DNA of 32,000 nt, taken from Candidatus Methanoperedens sp. (GTDB lineage: Archaea; Halobacteriota; Methanosarcinia; Methanosarcinales; Methanoperedenaceae). Numbering within the stretch: the first letter of the stretch is position 1; every line of letters starts with the position of its first letter. The position numbers were made by a program, and so were the translations under genes. Under the pieces are notes generated by a model, which was not told the origin of the DNA, made no database searches, and saw nothing but the letters and a program-made list of their open reading frames with translations. The stretch covers positions 1,414 through 33,413 of the forward strand of contig JAPZAR010000035.1 of NCBI GenBank assembly GCA_027460535.1. Direction: 5' to 3'. This document shows, in pieces, positions 8,494-32,000 of this stretch.

Positions 8494-11163
8494 ATGGTAA
8501 ATAACGAAATTCGGATACTGAACGATCAACCGATAGACCATGAAACATTTTTTAATTTTGACGACTATTCGGATGCTCTGGCAGGAATAATCCTCCATGA
8601 GGATACGAACACACCGCTCGTCATAGGTATATTTGGCGATTGGGGAAGCGGGAAAACAAGCCTGATGAAAACTTTGAAGAAGAAGATCGAAAATGTGAAA
8701 GATGGCCACTCTGCCCAGACTATCTGGTTCAATGCATGGAAATATGATAAAGAGGATGTTATCTCGCGCGCTCTTCTGACTCGAATACTGCAGGAACTAG
8801 AGACTAAGGGCGAAAAAAAGGACGAGAAAATCTTGAATCGAAGACTAAAGGATCTTCAGAGAAGTCTCTACAAGGACGTTTATCGCGAAGATCCCGGCTC
8901 TTTGACTTTTGATCTGGGCAAAGCTAGCAAAGGGGTTCTTAAGCTTGGCCTTTCAACGGTTCCCATCATAGGGGAAGGATTGGCGAAATTATTTGAAAAA
9001 GGTGTTGATAAAGATGCAATTATAGAAATAGCAGAATCATTACATCATGAGAAAATCATCACAAATATAGAAAAAATTGGAGAGCTTGAGCAATTTCAGT
9101 CAACCTTCCGGGAGATAATCAGGGATCATTATATCCAACATAATAAGAGAGCAGTAGTATTTATTGATGACCTGGATCGATGTGTTCCTGATAAAGCAAT
9201 AGAAGTTATGGAAGCCATCAAGCTGTTTCTGGATGTAGAGGGCTGTATCTTTATTTTAGGCATAGACAGGAATGTCATCCGCGAGGGAGTACGAATCAAA
9301 TATAAAGATTTCACATTAGGAGGCATAAAAGTTCCGATCAATGGTGAAGAATATCTGGAAAAGATAATTCAACTGAGTTTTATGCTCCCGCCTATAATGG
9401 AAAATAAGTTAAAAGAATTTATAGATGATCTTGATCAGAAAAAATCGTATAAAGAGTATCACGATATGATTATAAATGGGATCGGAAGGAATCCGCGTAA
9501 GATCAAACGCTTTATCAATGCCATAAGATTCCAGCAAAACCTGGCTGAAATAATTCCTGAAATGAAGGATATTGTCAAAGAGGATATCAAGCAAACATTT
9601 GATGCGCTGCTGATAGAATGGCAAATTATAAGCAGCAGCAGCAATTCTGATTTTGAAAATTTCAGAAAGGAGGTTATTAAAAATCCGGGTCTTCTGATCA
9701 AGAGCCATGATTATGTGGAGAGCCTGAAGTCCGGGAAAAAAGACGAACCTCCCAAAGAGCTAAACCCCTTTTGGAATGATTCAATTAAAGAATTGATATG
9801 GGTATTCCCATATCCAGGGACTCTAAAAGAAGGTGATACAGATATCATCAAAAAGGTAACTCATCTTAGCAATGTAACAGAAACAAAAACAACAATAGAA
9901 ACAGGTGTGGAAGAAACCTGGACACTTGAGAAAGTTAAGGAAGCAATAAAGAAAGGTATGAGTTTGGAAGGGAAAGATTTAAGCGGGCTTTCCTTAAATA
10001 AAATGAATCTAAATGGGGCGAATCTTTCGGGTGCAAAACTTATTAAAACAGACCTTTCTGAAGCAAAATTGGTAGAAGCAAATATCGTGCATACAGATCT
10101 TTCAGGTGCGATACTTATTGGAACAGATCTTTCTAAAGCCAGTCTTGCATATGCGGTTCTTATCCGGGCAAATCTTTCAGAAGCGATTCTGAAAAACGCA
10201 AAACTTCCAAATGCAGATTTCAGTTATGCTATCCTGAATGGAGCAAATCTCACTGAGGCGTACCTAAGCCTTTCTGATTTCTCTTATTCAAATCTTTCAA
10301 AAGCTACACTCACTGGGACCCTCGGTGGTGAAAATAAATTCATAGGGGCTAATTTATCGGGTGCTGATCTTTCTAATGCAGACCTAACAGACGCGAAACT
10401 TTCAGATGCAAACCTTTCTGGATTAGACCTCACTAATGTACCCCTCAGTGGAGCAGATCTTTCTAATGCAAACCTCATTAAAACTAAGCTCCCTGAAGAC
10501 CTCACTCGTACAATCCTAACCGGAGCAGACCTCACGGGAGCCAAACTCTCCGGTTCAACACTCTATGGAGACCTTTCAAGAATAGTACTTAACAATGCAG
10601 AGCTTAATGATATAAAATTCACTGAAATACAAACCCTTTCCGGAGCGAAAATTAAAGGAGCGAAAATAGGCAAATCTGATCTCTCTGGGTTGGATCTTTC
10701 AAATGTGGATTTCTCCAATACAGATCTAATTGAAACTAACCTGAATAAAACAAACCTCTCCAAAGCCATCCTGATAGACGCCAAACTATTCAATGCAAAA
10801 CTTCAACATGCAAACCTTTCAAATGCAAACCTTTCTAATGCGAAGCTCTCCGGATCAGACTTTTATTATGCAGATCTTTCCAATGCATCTCTTATTGGTG
10901 CAGATATATCCGGAACAGACCTGTCGTATGCAACATTGATAAAAATAAAAACCACACGAATTAAAGTCAATGAAAATACAAATGCAAGAGATGTGATTTT
11001 GGTTATGGATGAAGATCCCCAGGATGAAGCCAAAATAAAGAGAGCTCTGGATGATATAGATAAGGGATTAAGGGATATAATTATCAAACAAAATGAGCGT
11101 TACCGCAATATCTATTCTGGTTCAGAACCTGCCTCTGCCATTCCTGGTAAAGCAAAAAAATGA
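8494..11163 (+). CDS. KAP-family P-loop NTPase fused to a very long C-terminal pentapeptide-repeat domain
   Basis: 889 aa. GIFGDWGSGKTSL (Walker A), FNAWKYD and VVFIDDLDRC (Walker B) are KAP hallmarks. Residues ~493-815 are continuous A(D/N)LxX pentapeptides. Confidence 0.88.
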   Translation: MVNNEIRILNDQPIDHETFFNFDDYSDALAGIILHEDTNTPLVIGIFGDWGSGKTSLMKTLKKKIENVKDGHSAQTIWFNAWKYDKEDVISRALLTRILQELETKGEKKDEKILNRRLKDLQRSLYKDVYREDPGSLTFDLGKASKGVLKLGLSTVPIIGEGLAKLFEKGVDKDAIIEIAESLHHEKIITNIEKIGELEQFQSTFREIIRDHYIQHNKRAVVFIDDLDRCVPDKAIEVMEAIKLFLDVEGCIFILGIDRNVIREGVRIKYKDFTLGGIKVPINGEEYLEKIIQLSFMLPPIMENKLKEFIDDLDQKKSYKEYHDMIINGIGRNPRKIKRFINAIRFQQNLAEIIPEMKDIVKEDIKQTFDALLIEWQIISSSSNSDFENFRKEVIKNPGLLIKSHDYVESLKSGKKDEPPKELNPFWNDSIKELIWVFPYPGTLKEGDTDIIKKVTHLSNVTETKTTIETGVEETWTLEKVKEAIKKGMSLEGKDLSGLSLNKMNLNGANLSGAKLIKTDLSEAKLVEANIVHTDLSGAILIGTDLSKASLAYAVLIRANLSEAILKNAKLPNADFSYAILNGANLTEAYLSLSDFSYSNLSKATLTGTLGGENKFIGANLSGADLSNADLTDAKLSDANLSGLDLTNVPLSGADLSNANLIKTKLPEDLTRTILTGADLTGAKLSGSTLYGDLSRIVLNNAELNDIKFTEIQTLSGAKIKGAKIGKSDLSGLDLSNVDFSNTDLIETNLNKTNLSKAILIDAKLFNAKLQHANLSNANLSNAKLSGSDFYYADLSNASLIGADISGTDLSYATLIKIKTTRIKVNENTNARDVILVMDEDPQDEAKIKRALDDIDKGLRDIIIKQNERYRNIYSGSEPASAIPGKAKK
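9970..10940 (+). repeat. 15-nt-periodic coding repeat tract (pentapeptide repeats) inside the KAP gene
   Basis: Reiterated gcagatctttc(t/c)aatgca-type units encoding ...ANLSGADLSNADLTDAKLSDANLSG... Boundaries are approximate. Confidence 0.85.
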
Positions 11164-11759
11164 TTGTCCTGAAACTCGGCGGAAGCCTTATGCACAGGGT
11201 AAAAGAACTCATAAAGGAGATAATAGATTATTCTAACGAAAGCAAGGATACGATATTGATAGTCCCTGGCGGCTCCATCTTCGCAGATACAGTGAGAAGT
11301 GTGAAAGCCTCGCAGGAAGCTTCCCACTGGATGGCTGTCCTCGCTATGGAACAATATGGTTATTTCTTATCTGATGGAAACGATGCGAAACTCATTGATA
11401 ACCTGGATATAGAAGGTTCAGGTACGTATATTCTTCTCCCCTACAACATTCTGAAAAAGATTGATGAACTCCGACATACTTGGGATGTCACATCAGACAC
11501 GATCGCCGCCTGGGTCGCCCTTCAACTAAATGCAAGGTTCATAAAAGCCACGGATGTGGATGGGATATATCTCAATGGCATGCTGGTGAAGGAAATTTCC
11601 GCGCGTGAAATCACAGGGAAAGAAACCTGTGTGGATGCAGAGCTTCCTGTTTTTCTCATGAAGAATAAAATGAATTGCGAGATAATCAATGGTAACTGCC
11701 CCGGAAGACTGGGCAGGGCTTTTTCGGGTGATGCAGCAGGGACGATTATTAAAGGTTGA
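11160..11759 (+). CDS. small amino-acid-kinase-fold kinase, MfnE-like (methanofuran biosynthesis type)
   Basis: 199 aa. MIVLKLGGSL, LIVPGGSIFADTVR, HTWDVTSDTIAAW, ATDVDGIY. Start overlaps the KAP gene stop (ATGA at 11160-11163). Confidence 0.75.
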   Translation: MIVLKLGGSLMHRVKELIKEIIDYSNESKDTILIVPGGSIFADTVRSVKASQEASHWMAVLAMEQYGYFLSDGNDAKLIDNLDIEGSGTYILLPYNILKKIDELRHTWDVTSDTIAAWVALQLNARFIKATDVDGIYLNGMLVKEISAREITGKETCVDAELPVFLMKNKMNCEIINGNCPGRLGRAFSGDAAGTIIKG

Positions 11760-11765
11760 GAAGCT

Positions 11766-12035
11766 CTATTTACTCATTTCGATTTCAATAGTGGAGACAT
11801 TGGACTCTCCTCTTTCGGAAGCAATTTTTTCCGTGCCAATCCGGATGTCATTGACTTTAGCATCTGTTACGAATCTATTTCTTGCGACCTCAGCAGCGTC
11901 TACAGCTCTTGATATTGCCCTACCTCTGGCTTTGATAGTGACTATCTTGGCGCCGTTATTGAACTCTGTGGCCACTGCGAGAACATAGTTCATCACTGGT
12001 TTATTTCCAACAAACACTACATTATCCTCTGACAT
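11766..12035 (-). CDS. albA: Alba DNA/RNA-binding chromatin protein
   Basis: 89 aa. [15 protein letters not shown]...[22 protein letters not shown] is the classic Alba core. Confidence 0.95.
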
Positions 12036-12097
12036 ACTGCCTCCTCTCGATTTGCTAAAGAAGAATAACGATACCTGTACATAAACTTAACGAAAGT

Positions 12098-13690
12098 TCA
12101 ATGCAGGAAATGCCTCATTCCGGTGAATACAAGTGAAACCCCAAGCCTGTTCGCGGTTGTGATCACTTCATTATCCCTTATCGACCCCCCAGGAGATACA
12201 ATGTATCTGATATTGTTCTCAGCCGAAGAAATGATACTGTCGTCGAAAGGGAAAAAAGCATCGCTTGCCATGACACATTCGCCCATGATATTCTTTATGA
12301 ACTTTTCTTCGGATATCTCTGGTTTATCACGTTCATAAAAAATTTTCAGGTTCTCCACAGCCTTTGTGACGGCAAGTTTCTTTATCGCATCCACCCTGTT
12401 GGGCTGCCCTGCGCCTATGCTCAGTATCTGGTAAAACCCTTCTTCATACTCCCGTGCGATGACGACCGCGTTGGATTTTGTATGCTTGCAGGCGGTCAGT
12501 GCAAATTCTGCAAGCCCTCTTTTCTCATCCGGGAAAGGATGTTCTGTGACGACATCCCATTTTGCGTACAATCCCCGGTTCCTTGACTGGACAAGCATTC
12601 CTCCCACGATATAGTGATACATGTCCGGGAGAGGGGTTCCGTCTTCCATGGAGAGTTCAAGTATCCTCATGTCTTTGCTTTTGTTTTTAAGGAAAAGGAG
12701 TGCATCATCTTCAAATCCAGGGGCAATGACCAGTTCCACGAACTTTCCTTTCAGGAATTCCACTGTCTCAAGATCGGGAACCCGGGTCATGCATATGATG
12801 CTGCCGAACGATGAGACAGGGTCCCCGTCCCATGCTCTTGAAAGAGCTTCAAGGAGCGTTCTCCCGGTCGCAAATCCGCAGGGGTTGGTGTGTTTTACCA
12901 CAGATACGGCAATAAGGTCTTTGAATTCAAGCGCCACGTTCAGTGCGCTCTCGGCATCGACATAGTTATTGTAAGAGAGGGCTTTTCCATGAAGCTGTCT
13001 TGCATTCCCCACGGAGGGCTCGGTCATTCCAGGCTCTTTATAGAATTTTGCGCCCTGATGCCAGTTCTCGCCGTACCGGAGTGTCTTCCCCTCAACGAAC
13101 TTGAGGCGGAGTATATCTTCACCGGTCAACTGCCGGCTCAGATATGTGTCGATGGCGCAATCGTAATCAGCTATCCGCCTGAAAGCCTTGACAGCAAGAC
13201 GTTCTCTCGTCTTCAGGCTCAACTCCCCATTTTCAAGTTCTTTCAGGATTTCAGGATAATCTTCCGGGTCAGTTATTACAGCAACGTACCTGCAATTTTT
13301 TGCGGCCGCCCTTACAAGGGCAGGTCCCCCGATATCTATGTTTTCAATGGCTTCCTCGAGGCTCACGTTTTCCTGTTCCACGGTCTTCTCAAAAGGATAC
13401 AGGTTCACGGCCACGATATCGATGAAGCCAATGCCTTCATCTTCGGCTTCCTTCACATGAACTGGGTTATCCCGCAATGCAAGAATAGCCCCATGGATCT
13501 TTGGATGAAGCGTTTTCACCCTCCCGTCCATCATTTCCGGAAATCCGGTCACTTCAGATACATCTTTTACCTTTATTCTGGCATTTTTTAGAAATCGTGA
13601 TGTTCCACCGGTGGAAATAATCTCAAAACCAAGCCCTGCAAGCCCTTTGGCAAATTCAACTATGCCTGTCTTATCGGAAACGCTGATCAA
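12098..13690 (-). CDS. purH: bifunctional AICAR formyltransferase / IMP cyclohydrolase
   Basis: 530 aa. ISVSDKTGIVEFAK...STGGT...MDGRVKTLHPKIHGAIL at the N-terminus, C-terminal ...VFTGMRHFLH. Start is a TTG; there is no upstream in-frame ATG before a TGA. Confidence 0.93.
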   Translation of the reverse strand: MISVSDKTGIVEFAKGLAGLGFEIISTGGTSRFLKNARIKVKDVSEVTGFPEMMDGRVKTLHPKIHGAILALRDNPVHVKEAEDEGIGFIDIVAVNLYPFEKTVEQENVSLEEAIENIDIGGPALVRAAAKNCRYVAVITDPEDYPEILKELENGELSLKTRERLAVKAFRRIADYDCAIDTYLSRQLTGEDILRLKFVEGKTLRYGENWHQGAKFYKEPGMTEPSVGNARQLHGKALSYNNYVDAESALNVALEFKDLIAVSVVKHTNPCGFATGRTLLEALSRAWDGDPVSSFGSIICMTRVPDLETVEFLKGKFVELVIAPGFEDDALLFLKNKSKDMRILELSMEDGTPLPDMYHYIVGGMLVQSRNRGLYAKWDVVTEHPFPDEKRGLAEFALTACKHTKSNAVVIAREYEEGFYQILSIGAGQPNRVDAIKKLAVTKAVENLKIFYERDKPEISEEKFIKNIMGECVMASDAFFPFDDSIISSAENNIRYIVSPGGSIRDNEVITTANRLGVSLVFTGMRHFLH

Positions 13691-29556: not shown

Positions 29557-30396
29557 ATGAGCGGATTGATCGATTTTATATACAGGAATTATATTGATGG
29601 GATAATCAACGATACAAGTTATAATCATTTTGACATGATCACATATATCATTATTCTTTTCGTGGGCGTATATGCTGCACTAAAATTATTGAATAAATTG
29701 AAAATTAAAGTTGATGAGGAGTTTGTCATTGCTACAATTCCCTATATTTTCATGGGTTCAGTATTTCGGGTAATCGAGGATGCAAATTTACTAAAGCCGC
29801 CCGTCAAATATTTTTTTATCACGCCGCTTATTTACTTCGTAATCTTTGCAATATGTTTTGGGTCTCTTCTCCTCACAAGATACCTTGAAAAGCTCAAGAA
29901 AATAAGAAATTATATTCGTGTATACGCAATTGCCGGGGTCACATTATCGTTAGTGGGAGTTGCTATCCTCGTTTATTATAGTTCTTTTAATTGGAATCTC
30001 GCTATTCTTGTATATAGTCTTGTGCCAGCTATAGGATTGACCGAATTGGTCAGAAGAATATCTCCGGCGATCGGTATGACTTATCTTCGAAGCAGGATGT
30101 ATTCATTTGCAATATTTTCATTTCTGCTCGATTCGCTCACTACATATATTGGCGTAGATCTGCTGGGCTACACTAACAAACATCCTTTTAGTTCCTTCCT
30201 CACTTCCTTTTTTGGAACTGGAGCCATACTGGTTCCTCTGTCCCTGATTTTGGTACTTGTGATTGTCTTGTTGCTTGAAAAGGATTCCAAGGAAGATAAA
30301 AAACAGGATGAAAAGTATATGATGACATTGACCTTGATAGTTCTTGGTTTCTCCATGGGTGCAAGGAATTTGCTGGCAATGGTTTTCAGGGTTTAG
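29557..30396 (+). CDS. DUF63-like archaeal polytopic membrane protein
   Basis: ATG lies 2 nt after the upstream stop. About 7 TM helices, internal KDSKEDKKQDEK loop, C-terminal GFSMGARNLLAMVFRV. DUF63 assignment is from memory only. Confidence 0.62.
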   Translation: MSGLIDFIYRNYIDGIINDTSYNHFDMITYIIILFVGVYAALKLLNKLKIKVDEEFVIATIPYIFMGSVFRVIEDANLLKPPVKYFFITPLIYFVIFAICFGSLLLTRYLEKLKKIRNYIRVYAIAGVTLSLVGVAILVYYSSFNWNLAILVYSLVPAIGLTELVRRISPAIGMTYLRSRMYSFAIFSFLLDSLTTYIGVDLLGYTNKHPFSSFLTSFFGTGAILVPLSLILVLVIVLLLEKDSKEDKKQDEKYMMTLTLIVLGFSMGARNLLAMVFRV

Positions 30397-30461
30397 CCGG
30401 AGGACACGGCGCGGGGCAGGCGGTGGGGGGCGGAGAGAGCGGAGTAAATGGTGATCGCTTC

Positions 30462-30467
30462 TTTTTT
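30462..30467 (+). terminator. T6 run, candidate archaeal oligo-T terminator for the artA/DUF63 operon
   Basis: cttcTTTTTTatgg lies about 66 nt after the DUF63 stop. A shorter run is conserved in copy 2 (30781-30785). Confidence 0.3.
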
Positions 30468-30485
30468 ATGGTGGGAGTTCGAAGA

Positions 30486-30574
30486 ATAGAACGCGGATGA
30501 CGCGGATTTAACGGATACGCACGGATAATTTTAATCCGTGTCAATCAGTGTTATCCGTGCGCTCCGTGTTCTAT
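30486..30574 (+). ncRNA. candidate structured RNA / recombination hairpin, copy 1 (89-nt imperfect palindrome)
   Basis: Hand fold: 12-bp basal helix (30486-30497 / 30563-30574), 7-bp helix (30501-30507 / 30553-30559), AAC/GTT after a TT bulge, and a 7-bp apical helix (30520-30526 / 30534-30540) with loop AATTTTA. All arm mismatches are G opposite T on the + strand. Confidence 0.35.
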
Positions 30575-30720
30575 CACATCTTATATCACTTCAAAAATAT
30601 TAATATCTTGGCGCCGATATGTTCCCGAAGCAGCCTCACGGCCTATGGGACAGCGGGTTTACTCAGAATCAACAGCGAACTCCGGTTGAGAGCTATCCGA
30701 TGAGGGATAGTGCTGGCGAT

Positions 30721-30956
30721 GGCGCGGGGCAGGCGGCGGCGATGGGGGGCGGGGAGAGCGGAGTAAATGGTGATAGCTTCTTTTTATGGTGAAAGGAGCG
30801 GTTCAAAGAATAGAACGCGGATGACGCGGATTTAACGGATACGCACGGATAATTTTAATCTGTGTCAATCTGTGTTATCCGTGCGCTCCGTGTTCTATCA
30901 CATCTTATATCACTTCAAAAATATTAATCTCGCGGCGCCGATATGTTCCCGAAGCA
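30721..30956 (+). repeat. non-coding repeat unit, copy 2
   Basis: See copy 1. The hairpin offset between copies is 324 nt. Confidence 0.9.
30810..30898 (+). ncRNA. candidate structured RNA / recombination hairpin, copy 2
   Basis: Same fold as copy 1. Two right-arm substitutions (30861 T for C, 30871 T for A) give G-U pairs on the + strand. Confidence 0.35.
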
Positions 30957-30983
30957 ACTACCCCGCCAGCAGATTCCCCACAA

Positions 30984-31016
30984 CCGCCTCCATCAACTTC
31001 TCGCTGTCCGCCTGCG
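30984..31016. repeat. 33-nt direct repeat, left copy (ccgcctccatcaacttctcgctgtccgcctgcg)
   Basis: 30/33 identical to 31837-31869. Its right end forms half of the palindrome CCTGCG-ag-CGCAGG (31011-31024). Confidence 0.85.
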
Positions 31017-31080
31017 AGCGCAGGAGTACGGCTCAAGCTTATCGCAGAGGGGCATGAGCTGCTCTGGCGGCGATGCGGTG

Positions 31081-31416
31081 CTATCTAGCTGCATACATTA
31101 CTTTACCTTTTCTTGCGAAGTCAGTAATAAGAGAATTACCGCTTTCAAATTCTTCAGAAGTGAGGGTGATAATATCAAGAGGCACTCTGAATTTTTTTAT
31201 GGTGTTAATCTCTGCTTCCTTCGTCAATCTTGCCCTTTCAAAAATATCTTTGTTCCGAAAATCCGGAGAAATTATCAGAATATCCACATCGCTATCTAAA
31301 GTCGCTTTTCCCGTGCTGTGCGACCCGAATAGAATTATCTTTGAAACTTTCAATCCTTTTTCTTTCAAACAATTCTCAAAGAATTTAATGGCTTCTACTA
31401 TTTTGTCTTTAACCAT
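31081..31416 (-). CDS. minimal nucleotidyltransferase (MNT, NTP_transf_2) of a HEPN/MNT toxin-antitoxin pair
   Basis: 111 aa. IILFGSHSTGKATLDSDVDILII (GS...DxD). Confidence 0.9.
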   Translation of the reverse strand: MVKDKIVEAIKFFENCLKEKGLKVSKIILFGSHSTGKATLDSDVDILIISPDFRNKDIFERARLTKEAEINTIKKFRVPLDIITLTSEEFESGNSLITDFARKGKVMYAAR

Positions 31417-31769
31417 TTTAATAACTCCTTCCCTTTTTCAAGTATCTTTTCTGTTGTATTCATATTGTATTCGTTCAGCATTCTTTGCAGATTATCAGGA
31501 TATCGAGTGAGAACGCTTACTCTGTTCAGAGTGAAGACAAAATCATACATATCTTCAGGTAATTCCAGATCGATAATTTCAATAAGATAAAGCAGATTGT
31601 GAGTTTTGGGTGGCGCTTCTTTATTTTTTTGAATGATCAGACCCTTGAGCGCTTTTTCTATAGATAAATGGCACATGAAGACAGTATAAAAATAACGTTC
31701 TCCTTTGAACATGAATTCTGCGGTTTCCATGTCATAATCAGCTTGTTTGAACCATTCATCTTTATCCAT
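31398..31769 (-). CDS. HEPN-domain protein of a HEPN/MNT toxin-antitoxin pair
   Basis: 123 aa. WFKQADYDMETAEFMF...CHLSIEKALKGL...PKTHNLLYL...LTRYPD. 19-nt overlap with the MNT gene. Confidence 0.88.
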   Translation of the reverse strand: MDKDEWFKQADYDMETAEFMFKGERYFYTVFMCHLSIEKALKGLIIQKNKEAPPKTHNLLYLIEIIDLELPEDMYDFVFTLNRVSVLTRYPDNLQRMLNEYNMNTTEKILEKGKELLKWLKTK

Positions 31770-31836: not shown

Positions 31837-31869
31837 CCGCCTCCATCAATCTCTCGCTGTTCGCCTGCG
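31837..31869. repeat. 33-nt direct repeat, right copy (ccgcctccatcaatctctcgctgttcgcctgcg)
   Basis: 30/33 identical to 30984-31016. Looser similarity (ccagca..tcc..) extends about 12 nt further left in both copies. Confidence 0.85.
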
Positions 31870-32000
31870 GTTGGGCGACAGTCCTACTATGGATTCAAGA
31901 TGGTGGGCAAGAGGAATAGGGTGATGGGGTTGCCGGAAATGCAGGGCTATGACCCTAGTTTGAATGAAGACCCTGTTCACTTGGAGAAATATATATCACT

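Follow-up and report, generated by a model that had tools for sequence, protein, structure and literature searches.

The intergenic hairpins described here lie near the right end of a 32,000-nt stretch of chromosomal DNA of Candidatus Methanoperedens sp. (the window), in which a duplicated unit at 30408–30956 carries two imperfect palindromes of 89 nt. Both are gene-less copies of an extragenic palindrome that is widespread, occurring in many bacterial phyla as well as in Methanoperedens; the palindrome is associated with the gene of a small nuclease-like protein, GxxExxY (PDDEXK_3). The window hairpins are probably non-autonomous DNA palindromes, comparable to repetitive extragenic palindromes (REPs) or miniature inverted-repeat transposable elements (MITEs), that are tied to a GxxExxY element and operate at the DNA level rather than as a strand-specific RNA gene. 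An earlier reading, made from the sequence only, had proposed a strand-specific structured RNA or else a single-strand recombination hairpin of unknown class; the second of these pointed roughly in the right direction. Other loci are denoted below by L and a number.

30486–30574, either strand: hairpin copy 1, a gene-less iteron palindrome (from its fold and covariance model R2)
30810–30898, either strand: hairpin copy 2 (from its fold and covariance model R2)

Copy 1 consists of the terminus ATAGAAC, four RCGGAT iterons with periods of 9, 9 and 10 nt, the loop AATTTTA, four mirrored iterons and the terminus GTTCTAT. The iterons of the window copies read GCGGAT, GCGGAT, ACGGAT and ACGGAT at these periods, and the termini ATAGAAC/GTTCTAT fall at 30486–30492 and 30568–30574 in copy 1 and at 30810–30816 and 30892–30898 in copy 2. 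The initial 22 nt of the palindrome match at exactly two places in the 32 kb, against an expectation of zero. Both segments fold as single rods. As + strand RNA, copy 1 reaches −44.3 kcal/mol (z = −7.0) and copy 2 −46.1 kcal/mol (z = −7.6) relative to dinucleotide shuffles, 0 of 200 of which folded equally well; the minus strands reach −36.7 and −33.7 kcal/mol, respectively. The helices drawn by hand in the sequence-only reading are essentially those of the minimum free energy fold, and the two right-arm differences between the copies (30537 C to 30861 T and 30547 A to 30871 T) are as it described them. In copy 1, three pairs are non-Watson-Crick (two G:T and one G:A); in copy 2 there are four, all of them G:T. 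Two short metagenome contigs of this locus, L003 (1339 nt) and L004 (1087 nt), break off precisely at the hairpin.

In a scan of 596 Gb, comprising one genome per species, a pattern of four phased CGGAT words (20 specified bases) matched at least 120 stretches where about one was expected by chance. Most of the matches are palindromes with the consensus (A)ATAGAAC-[RCGGAT]x4-loop-[ATCCGY]x4-GTTCTAT(T). Besides Ca. Methanoperedens nitroreducens, the matches listed come from over 10 bacterial phyla; the bacterial taxa among them include Acidobacteriota, Chloroflexota, Gemmatimonadota, Planctomycetota, Bacteroidota, Ignavibacteria, Gammaproteobacteria (Luteimonas), Desulfuromonadales, Spirochaetia, Firmicutes, KSB1, Cloacimonadota and Marinimicrobia. 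The family hairpin is rod-like and ~80–105 nt long, each arm being composed of ATAGAAC and four R-C-N-GAT iterons about one helical turn (9–10 nt) apart, around a short, A/T-rich loop. The spacers vary between loci yet remain complementary inside each element. Two spacing variants gave 0 and 1 matches in IMG/VR, and a phage origin was rejected.

The scan pattern has a first spacer of N6 and the window hairpins one of N5, so that the scan collected a sister spacing variant. Membership of the window copies was for this reason tested separately, by alignment and with covariance models R1 and R2. Compact members align with the window copies end to end, and the 13-nt terminus ATAGAACGCGGAT is identical in the window copies and in L040, L055 and L121. 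RNAalifold recovered double-sided compensatory change at 9 of 31 pairs; in the basal stem (columns 2–6/103–107), 6–10 sequences carry compensatory change at each pair. Model R2, built from 24 bacterial and metagenomic hairpins without any Methanoperedens sequence, matches the window copies over model positions 1–89 of 89 with 65.9 and 68.5 bits (E ~1e-16), the next-best match in the window scoring 13 bits. By the covariance models, the window holds exactly two copies of the family. The spacing variant of the window recurs in the hairpins that flank PDDEXK_3 genes at L173, L204, L165 and L147. The hairpin-forming element postulated from the sequence is genuine, its stem being maintained by compensatory change.

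This covariation also bears on whether the iterons might serve solely as a double-stranded array for a DNA-binding protein, as an operator or a centromere-like site in which the hairpin never forms. Four repeats per arm at about one helical turn (9–10 bp), as in ParR/omega-type arrays, and the position of the array 16 nt upstream of a box resembling a transcription factor B recognition element and TATA box (BRE/TATA) in every unit would suit such a site. Duplex binding, however, needs no complementarity in the spacers and basal stem, which co-vary strongly; the palindrome reaches ~30 nt past the iterons, in locus-specific sequence, at L013, L033 and L034; and the bacterial element has no promoter association and avoids divergent intergenic regions. 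We consider a purely duplex role very unlikely.

The case for an RNA had rested on helix mismatches that were G-U compatible on the + strand only. The pattern holds in the two window copies, whose transition-type mismatches are all G:T, but not in the sister copies or in the family. Sister copies in the same array (L001 14230–14318 and 15481–15570) carry C:A, A:C and T:C mismatches that are incompatible with G-U pairing on the + strand, and other copies of the Methanoperedens lineage show extra G:T pairs but also C:A, A:C, T:C and G:A. Counted as independent events, the lineage favours the + strand by about 6 to 2 at most, which is not significant. For the family as a whole, strands were counted in 45 independent elements oriented by a neighbouring PDDEXK_3 gene and ascertained apart from the scan pattern; matches to that pattern, which forces a perfect left arm, are unfit for such a count. 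Mismatches of the G:T type numbered 64 and of the A:C type 82 (p = 0.16), and the per-element imbalance (150 against 146 expected) showed no over-dispersion, as for independent coin flips. R2 scores the strands of the window copies almost equally (65.9/68.5 bits on +, 63.4/62.0 bits on −). The family behaves as a symmetric palindrome without strand bias, and the G:T-only pattern in the window is most plausibly an effect of the small sample, two copies that are nearly identical.

A strand-specific structured non-coding RNA would require that the + strand be transcribed and that the functional rod be kept by G-U-tolerant substitutions. The better + strand folds and the G:T mismatches of the window copies, the + strand gene upstream and the BRE/TATA-like box in each unit accord with this, but the sister-copy mismatches, the symmetric family counts and the near-equal strand scores of a model that had seen no window sequence speak against it. 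Moreover, the T6 run before the hairpin on the + strand would tend to end archaeal transcripts ahead of it, and the neighbours of family members are unrelated genes. The sequence-only reading could place the hairpin in no RNA family and was right in this: Rfam 15 gave no match in the window at the gathering threshold, a permissive scan (E ≤ 10) of 30300–31100 a single 13.8-bit chance match, and 15 bacterial or archaeal loci with the element no match. That reading had also named pairing-disrupting substitutions in further copies as evidence against itself, and these were found in part. We judge an RNA of this kind quite unlikely.

The association of the palindrome with a gene was evident from both directions. 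In the full-length element, two arms or two whole hairpins enclose a GxxExxY gene of ~125 aa (PDDEXK_3, PF13366, TIGR04256), which is the only gene found between arms. At L057, arms several hundred nt apart enclose a 128-aa PDDEXK_3 gene (E = 5.8e-39; TIGR04256 ‘GxxExxY protein’), and among ~120 loci selected for hairpins, all three PDDEXK_3 genes present abut arms or hairpins. In L214 (Ignavibacterium), an element of only ~480 bp, consisting of a 45-nt arm, a ribosome-binding site, the gene and the other arm, sits between DUF72 and dinB. For the reciprocal test, 80 PDDEXK_3 genes were gathered from metagenomes without reference to the repeat. This set displays two layouts, arm–gene–arm and hairpin–gene–hairpin, with constant termini and with iteron words that are variable and often mixed (CGGAT, CAGAT, CTGAT, CGAAT and others), which leaves C-N-GAT as the effective word. 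Four or more phased C-N-GAT iterons were present in 31 of 76 upstream and 31 of 76 downstream flanks of 150 nt (62 of 152 in total), compared with 8 of 1117 control windows (odds ratio 95, p = 8e-54). At 34 of 67 loci, but at only 2 of 40 controls, the gene lies within an exact inverted repeat with arms of 10 nt or more, and complete hairpins are 12-fold denser near PDDEXK_3 genes (1.29 per kb) than in controls (0.11 per kb).

Several loci show how the palindrome varies. Tandem hairpin arrays occur at L138 (1737–3325), L189 and L035 (3717–4061); L138 has at least 16 complete hairpins with a ~95-nt period around a GxxExxY gene, and in L035 left arms are repeated with a 44-nt period. In L013 (3185–3330), L033 and L034 (Acidobacteria metagenome-assembled genome PMV_8.33), palindromy runs ~30 nt past the iteron core, and these outer stems, locus-specific and perfectly complementary, hint at arm-to-arm copying or strong structural selection. 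Two near-identical metagenome contigs, L153 and L154, differ by one 10-nt iteron unit in the right arm 3′ of the PDDEXK_3 gene, and iteron number therefore changes by slippage. A second type of iteron palindrome, with the word CACAGAG (GGCACAGAGGACACAGAG...CTCTGTGCTCTCAGTGTGC), lies at L001 13571–13646 and scores 19–22 bits with the hairpin models; runs resembling CACAGAG/CACGGAG flank several bacterial matches (L021, L078, L125).

The GxxExxY proteins form a very large family (7,988 of 8,000 scored candidates at E ≤ 1e-10), whose function is unknown and in which multiple inter-domain transfers have been described (PMC3424549). A sequence search of the PDB with the nuclease found no relative. 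Among solved folds, an AlphaFold (AF2) model with a pLDDT of 90.9 comes nearest to Cas4 SSO0001, LHK-Exo, lambda exonuclease and the nuclease domain of AdnAB, and it bears a more distant likeness to the Holliday-junction resolvase Hjc. Residues D66, E76, K78, Q90 and Y94 are invariant, corresponding to D...ExK and QxxxY. GxxExxY is thus a minimal RecB/Cas4-type PD-(D/E)XK nuclease whose catalytic residues are intact, and probably an active one.

By analogy with REP/REPIN and RAYT, or with a MITE and its parent insertion sequence (IS), gene-less hairpins such as those of the window would be non-autonomous derivatives or cognate sites of the nuclease-gene element. Their action would be at the DNA level, through an extruded hairpin or cruciform or through paired arms. 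The GxxExxY nuclease may recognize the hairpin or cruciform via the helically phased iterons and act on the palindrome, and hairpins might thereby be propagated or maintained as DNA; the element would then be mobile now or would have been so formerly.

Several observations weigh against this interpretation. No GxxExxY gene was found in the ~90 kb of Methanoperedens DNA read (window, L001, L090 and L217), and we found neither an orthologous site in empty and filled form nor a target-site duplication. The iteron word (CGGAT, CAGAT or CTGAT) does not co-vary with protein similarity (p = 0.59), as judged from 51 scorable loci that span only ~64% mean identity, and clear arms were detected at only about half of the PDDEXK_3 genes. 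The spacing variant of the window, whose first spacer is 1 nt shorter, went uncounted in the genome-wide scan. Finally, the + strand folds 8–12 kcal/mol better than the minus strand in both window copies.

A bolder proposal is that the GxxExxY gene and its palindrome constitute a previously undescribed class of mobile or selfish element, with GxxExxY as its sole gene, in which the iteron-array ends would pair and the nuclease would cut the resulting structure to drive copying. We put this forward tentatively, as a possibility that we would not at present back. In open-access literature we found neither the palindrome nor a connection between it and GxxExxY proteins described, and a text search with the iteron sequences matched only primers and irrelevant passages.

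The position of the palindrome relative to genes might suggest a further function. In the window, the neighbouring features are as follows.

29557–30396, + strand: DUF63 membrane protein gene (Pfam DUF63, 1.2e-68; exact product on eight contigs)
30958–31081, − strand: decayed 3′ fragment of hsdS (type I restriction S-subunit), abutting the MNT gene and forming the right boundary of the duplicated unit
31081–31769, − strand: MNT/HEPN toxin–antitoxin (TA) pair, first cassette of a variable array
31081–31416, − strand: MNT (Pfam NTP_transf_2, 3.7e-14)
31398–31769, − strand: HEPN (Pfam HEPN, 8.7e-23)
31837–31869, − strand: shorter hsdS 3′ fragment, the second of the two; next to it comes a paralogue of the unit that lacks the hairpin (the ‘B module’)

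The window hairpins thus lie between convergent genes, DUF63 on the + strand and the TA genes on the minus strand. Solitary hairpins elsewhere adjoin unrelated housekeeping genes: the 148 open reading frames (ORFs) that neighbour at least 100 of them include no recurrent transposase or integrase and gave 156 unrelated Pfam families, none recurring more than four times. The flanking genes are convergent in 25 cases, tandem in 34 and divergent in 8, compared with 17, 33 and 17 expected. Copies sit at the 3′ ends of unrelated genes. From this orientation bias, one could picture an RNA-level 3′-end element that works on either strand, as a bidirectional terminator or a stabilizer of mRNA 3′ ends, with the nuclease gene as a frequent passenger. 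Such a role has been proposed for many REPs (PMC3733652), and it would fit the enrichment between convergent and depletion between divergent genes (25 against 8), the symmetric mismatch statistics, which suit use of both strands, and, in the window, the placement between DUF63 and the hsdS fragment/MNT/HEPN genes with a T-run on + and an A-run (a T-run on −) on either side. These T-runs (30462–30467 on +; 30594–30598 read on −), however, precede the hairpin in either direction of transcription, which is not the layout of an intrinsic terminator. Nor does a 3′-end role explain why phased C-N-GAT iterons are conserved in different phyla and domains, why GxxExxY genes are so tightly embedded, or why 16 or more hairpins form tandem arrays. 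As a full account of the element it is unlikely; it is compatible with the DNA palindrome tied to GxxExxY that we favour, and perhaps secondary to it.

The unit that carries the hairpins in the window is a separate matter. A repeat search of the window confirmed the duplication of 30408–30632 at 30721–30956, recovering it as three collinear blocks of 93–95% identity with a period of 313–324 nt, and every sub-element that the sequence-only reading had listed in order (G-rich tract, T-run, palindrome, TATA-like box and terminal block) is found in both units. The true repeating period of ~324 nt takes in the 88 nt that separated the two blocks in that reading.

30408–30426 versus 30721–30739: repeat block a
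30419–30466 versus 30738–30785: repeat block b, 94% identity
30477–30643 versus 30801–30967: repeat block c, 167 nt, 93% identity
30408–30455, + strand: G-rich tract of unit 1, C-rich on the minus strand, read from the sequence and also seen in the L001 paralogues
30721–30770, + strand: G-rich tract of unit 2 (sequence and repeat search)
30462–30467, + strand: T6 run of unit 1, 66 nt past the DUF63 stop codon
30781–30785, + strand: T5 run of unit 2, read, like the T6 run, directly
30590–30604: A/T-rich box of unit 1, ttcaaaaatattaat, read directly
30914–30928: A/T-rich box of unit 2, read directly
30610–30632: conserved block of unit 1, ggcgccgatatgttcccgaagca, read directly and from paralogues
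30934–30956: conserved block of unit 2, read directly and from paralogues
30633–30720: inter-copy segment of 88 nt, part of the ~324-nt tandem period and paralogous to L001 14060–14150
30872–31057: ORF of 61 aa with a GTG start, spurious
30943–31299: ORF of 118 aa, spurious

The two units had been described as lying in ~680 nt free of ORFs of 60 codons or more. Strictly, two such ORFs (61 and 118 aa) overlap the right end of this stretch, but both are spurious, because they run antisense to the hsdS fragment and the MNT gene. The inter-hairpin segment was also considered as coding and as a conserved RNA structure, and rejected as both: its 57-aa ORF (30619–30792) has stops or indels in paralogues and itself as sole homologue, and RNAalifold, on four paralogues only, gave a covariation term of ~0 on both strands with one compensatory pair. 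Across these four paralogues, the rest of the 230-nt unit showed covariation-supported structure on neither strand, and no conserved structure was found in the G-rich tract. Outside the hairpin, the unit is non-coding and without conserved RNA structure. BLASTN aligns window 30575–31082 with L001 14010–14493 at 89% identity. Within the inter-hairpin segment, a 10–11-nt tandem repeat, GAACTCGTAY, is present in one, two or three copies depending on the paralogue (L001 15339–15360 and 15655–15700, versus window 30668–30680).

The T6 run at 30462–30467 is a possible archaeal oligo-T terminator for rightward transcription. Its motif, TTTTTTATGGTG, constitutes repeat family D6 in the repeat search of the window; a third exact copy lies antisense within the MNT coding region at 31193–31204, where ~3e-4 copies are expected by chance in 2.5 kb. 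The core of the A/T-rich box, TATATCACTTCAAAA (repeat family D8), has 8 copies within 5 kb of L001, box and conserved block recurring together 8 times. In the array, the box is always just downstream of minus-strand hsdS fragments, the minus strand reading ...ATATTTTTG..., and the conserved block, with a core GCGCCGATATGT that is invariant in six paralogues, comes after the stop codon of these fragments. The box at 30590–30604 could be an archaeal BRE/TATA-like promoter on the + strand; it could equally be a T5 terminator on the minus strand, from an old hsdS terminator region.

The ~324-nt repeat is polymorphic in copy number. Two units are present in the window, L002/L006, L007 and L008, and one in L001/L005 (GCA_027460495.1) and L009, with allele flanks that are 99.97% identical. 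The single-unit allele is a clean hybrid, its left side resembling unit 1 and its right side unit 2, exactly the hybrid that unequal homologous recombination would produce. The best explanation is a local event separate from the palindrome, either a recent tandem duplication or a deletion that gave the one-copy allele, by such recombination. The duplicated DNA is lineage-specific and non-coding, and it carries the hairpin by happenstance.

The unit borders an array that differs between strains. In L001 10840–15810 (~5 kb, extending past the window end), three hairpin-bearing units and several hairpin-less B modules accompany three TA cassettes (MNT/HEPN, PemIK and RelB/ParE-like) and four copies of a ~40–125-nt fragment, and the array ends at a type I restriction–modification (R-M) operon. 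The B module of the window runs off its end; window 31862–32000 is identical to L001 13697–13835 and matches L001 11978–12120. On the minus strand, the fragment reads ...DQLMSLCDKLEAGLMRSQADSERLMEAV...; its matches are short proteins of Methanoperedens that bear the annotation ‘restriction endonuclease subunit S’, some with PF01420, and a paralogous 74-aa ORF likewise matches such fragments of Ca. Methanoperedens. It is therefore an hsdS 3′ remnant. The repeat family of these fragments, CCGCCTCCATCAAC..CTGCG, is found repeatedly in the window and in L001. In another strain (L217, GCA_040223915.1), the R-M operon and ParE cassette are as in L001, a PIN cassette replaces PemK and MNT/HEPN, and a single hairpin is present; it is the hsdS fragment, rather than the hairpin, that stands on both sides of the cassettes. 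The L217 array (9400–12200) ends beside a tRNA gene. On one strand, hsdS 3′ fragments bracket each TA cassette, always with an identical junction (GGCGGCGATGCGGTGC); further fragment sites are L001 11104–11136, 11957–11989, 14394–14426 and 15109–15141 and L217 10755–10880 and 11560–11690, and there are 55 clusters of hsdS-type fragments of 45–105 aa, many annotated Methanoperedens. It looks as if the conserved C-terminal region of hsdS had served time and again as a site where TA cassettes insert or recombine. The array beside the R-M operon of type I is a defence/TA island that evolves fast and differs between Methanoperedens strains.

Given this setting, the hairpin might be an attC-like or other site-specific recombination site that bounds TA cassettes, in an archaeal integron-like array recombined as folded single strands. 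Its 89 nt fall within the attC size range, its ends read ...AAC/GTT..., and it stands at the edge of a strain-variable array of small TA cassettes. But ATAGAAC/GTTCTAT fit RYYYAAC/GTTRRRY only at AAC/GTT, the internal loops are symmetric and without extrahelical bases, and no integrase was found in the 32-kb window or 10 kb beyond, nor in L001, L216 or L217. The numbers do not match either: L001 has three hairpins for three TA cassettes plus several empty units, and L217 one hairpin for at least two cassettes. The recurrent cassette boundary is the ~125-nt hsdS 3′ fragment, and the palindrome adjoins housekeeping genes in more than 100 bacterial loci. A recombination site of this kind is extremely improbable.

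The assignment to Candidatus Methanoperedens agrees with the 100% identity of two small ORFs here to NCBI proteins from metagenome-assembled genomes of that name. The remaining genes around the locus include ribonucleotide reductase, PurH, PdxS, CofC, ZnuABC and an archaeosortase-like protein besides DUF63, a KAP-NTPase and AIPR/HNH. The last of these belong to defence-type genes at 8494–11163 and 20253–21789, namely a KAP-family NTPase that carries fused pentapeptide repeats, and an AIPR (abortive-infection) gene with an HNH nuclease after it.

The link to the palindrome gives GxxExxY/PDDEXK_3, a huge family of unknown function (PMC3424549), a testable substrate, and suggests that a REP/RAYT-like system can rest on another nuclease fold. 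It also explains a class of intergenic hairpins in many phyla. Such hairpins break metagenome assemblies, as in L003 and L004, and draw spurious ORF calls, and they should not be read as lineage-specific structured RNAs. In Methanoperedens, the hairpin marks the edge of a rapidly rearranging defence/TA island. If the proposed mobile-element class were real, it would be a second, mechanistically independent REP/RAYT-like system, reaching most bacterial phyla and extending into archaea.

Among known systems, the palindrome most invites comparison with REP/REPIN–RAYT. REPs are palindromes of 20–40 bp with an unpaired GTAG or CGTC tag at one end, and they lie mostly between convergent or unidirectional ORFs (PMC3733652). 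Like them, the present family comprises short extragenic palindromes scattered beside unrelated genes, prefers convergent or unidirectional ORFs, is present singly, as doublets and in clusters, keeps its stem while the sequence drifts, and has a small nuclease-type gene flanked by inverted repeats. Unlike RAYTs, however, the flanked gene encodes a PD-(D/E)XK protein (RecB/Cas4-like) and not an HUH/Y1 transposase, and no Y1_Tnp was found among the 148 ORFs neighbouring family hairpins. The 89-nt hairpin has paired ends and no GTAG/CGTC tag, its arm of ~40 nt is made of four phased iterons rather than a simple palindrome of 20–40 bp, and its consensus is common to phyla and domains, whereas REPs are largely lineage-specific.

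MITEs provide a second parallel, in that an intergenic element of ~85–105 nt consists of two inverted-repeat arms with a short loop that are the ends of a longer, gene-carrying element. The sequence-only reading had named identification with a known IS or MITE with terminal inverted repeats as evidence against itself. In spirit this holds, since the arms are the inverted-repeat ends of an element with a gene, but that element is not catalogued as an IS as far as could be determined. It differs further in having no DDE or other known transposase between the arms and in a ‘parent’ of only ~480 bp that encodes a 125-aa nuclease, and no direct repeat indicative of a target-site duplication borders the window hairpins (GAAGA|ATAG...CTAT|CACAT) or the element in L214. 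Like integron attC sites, the palindrome forms an imperfect hairpin of comparable length, has AAC...GTT at the base of the stem and lies beside small strain-variable cassettes, many of them toxin–antitoxin pairs; it lacks IntI, the R/L box consensus, extrahelical bases and a one-per-cassette distribution, and its internal iterons are conserved across phyla, whereas attC sites have no such iterons.

A final parallel is with homing-type PD-(D/E)XK genes. In L214, a very small nuclease gene of selfish appearance is placed precisely between housekeeping genes, as such genes are, and the PDDEXK_3 phylogeny shows many transfers (PMC3424549). We know of no report that GxxExxY proteins cleave or home, and a multi-copy gene-less palindrome is no feature of classical homing endonucleases. 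Extragenic palindromes accompanied by a nuclease gene are a known arrangement; the present one departs from it in its nuclease fold and in an arm built of iterons.

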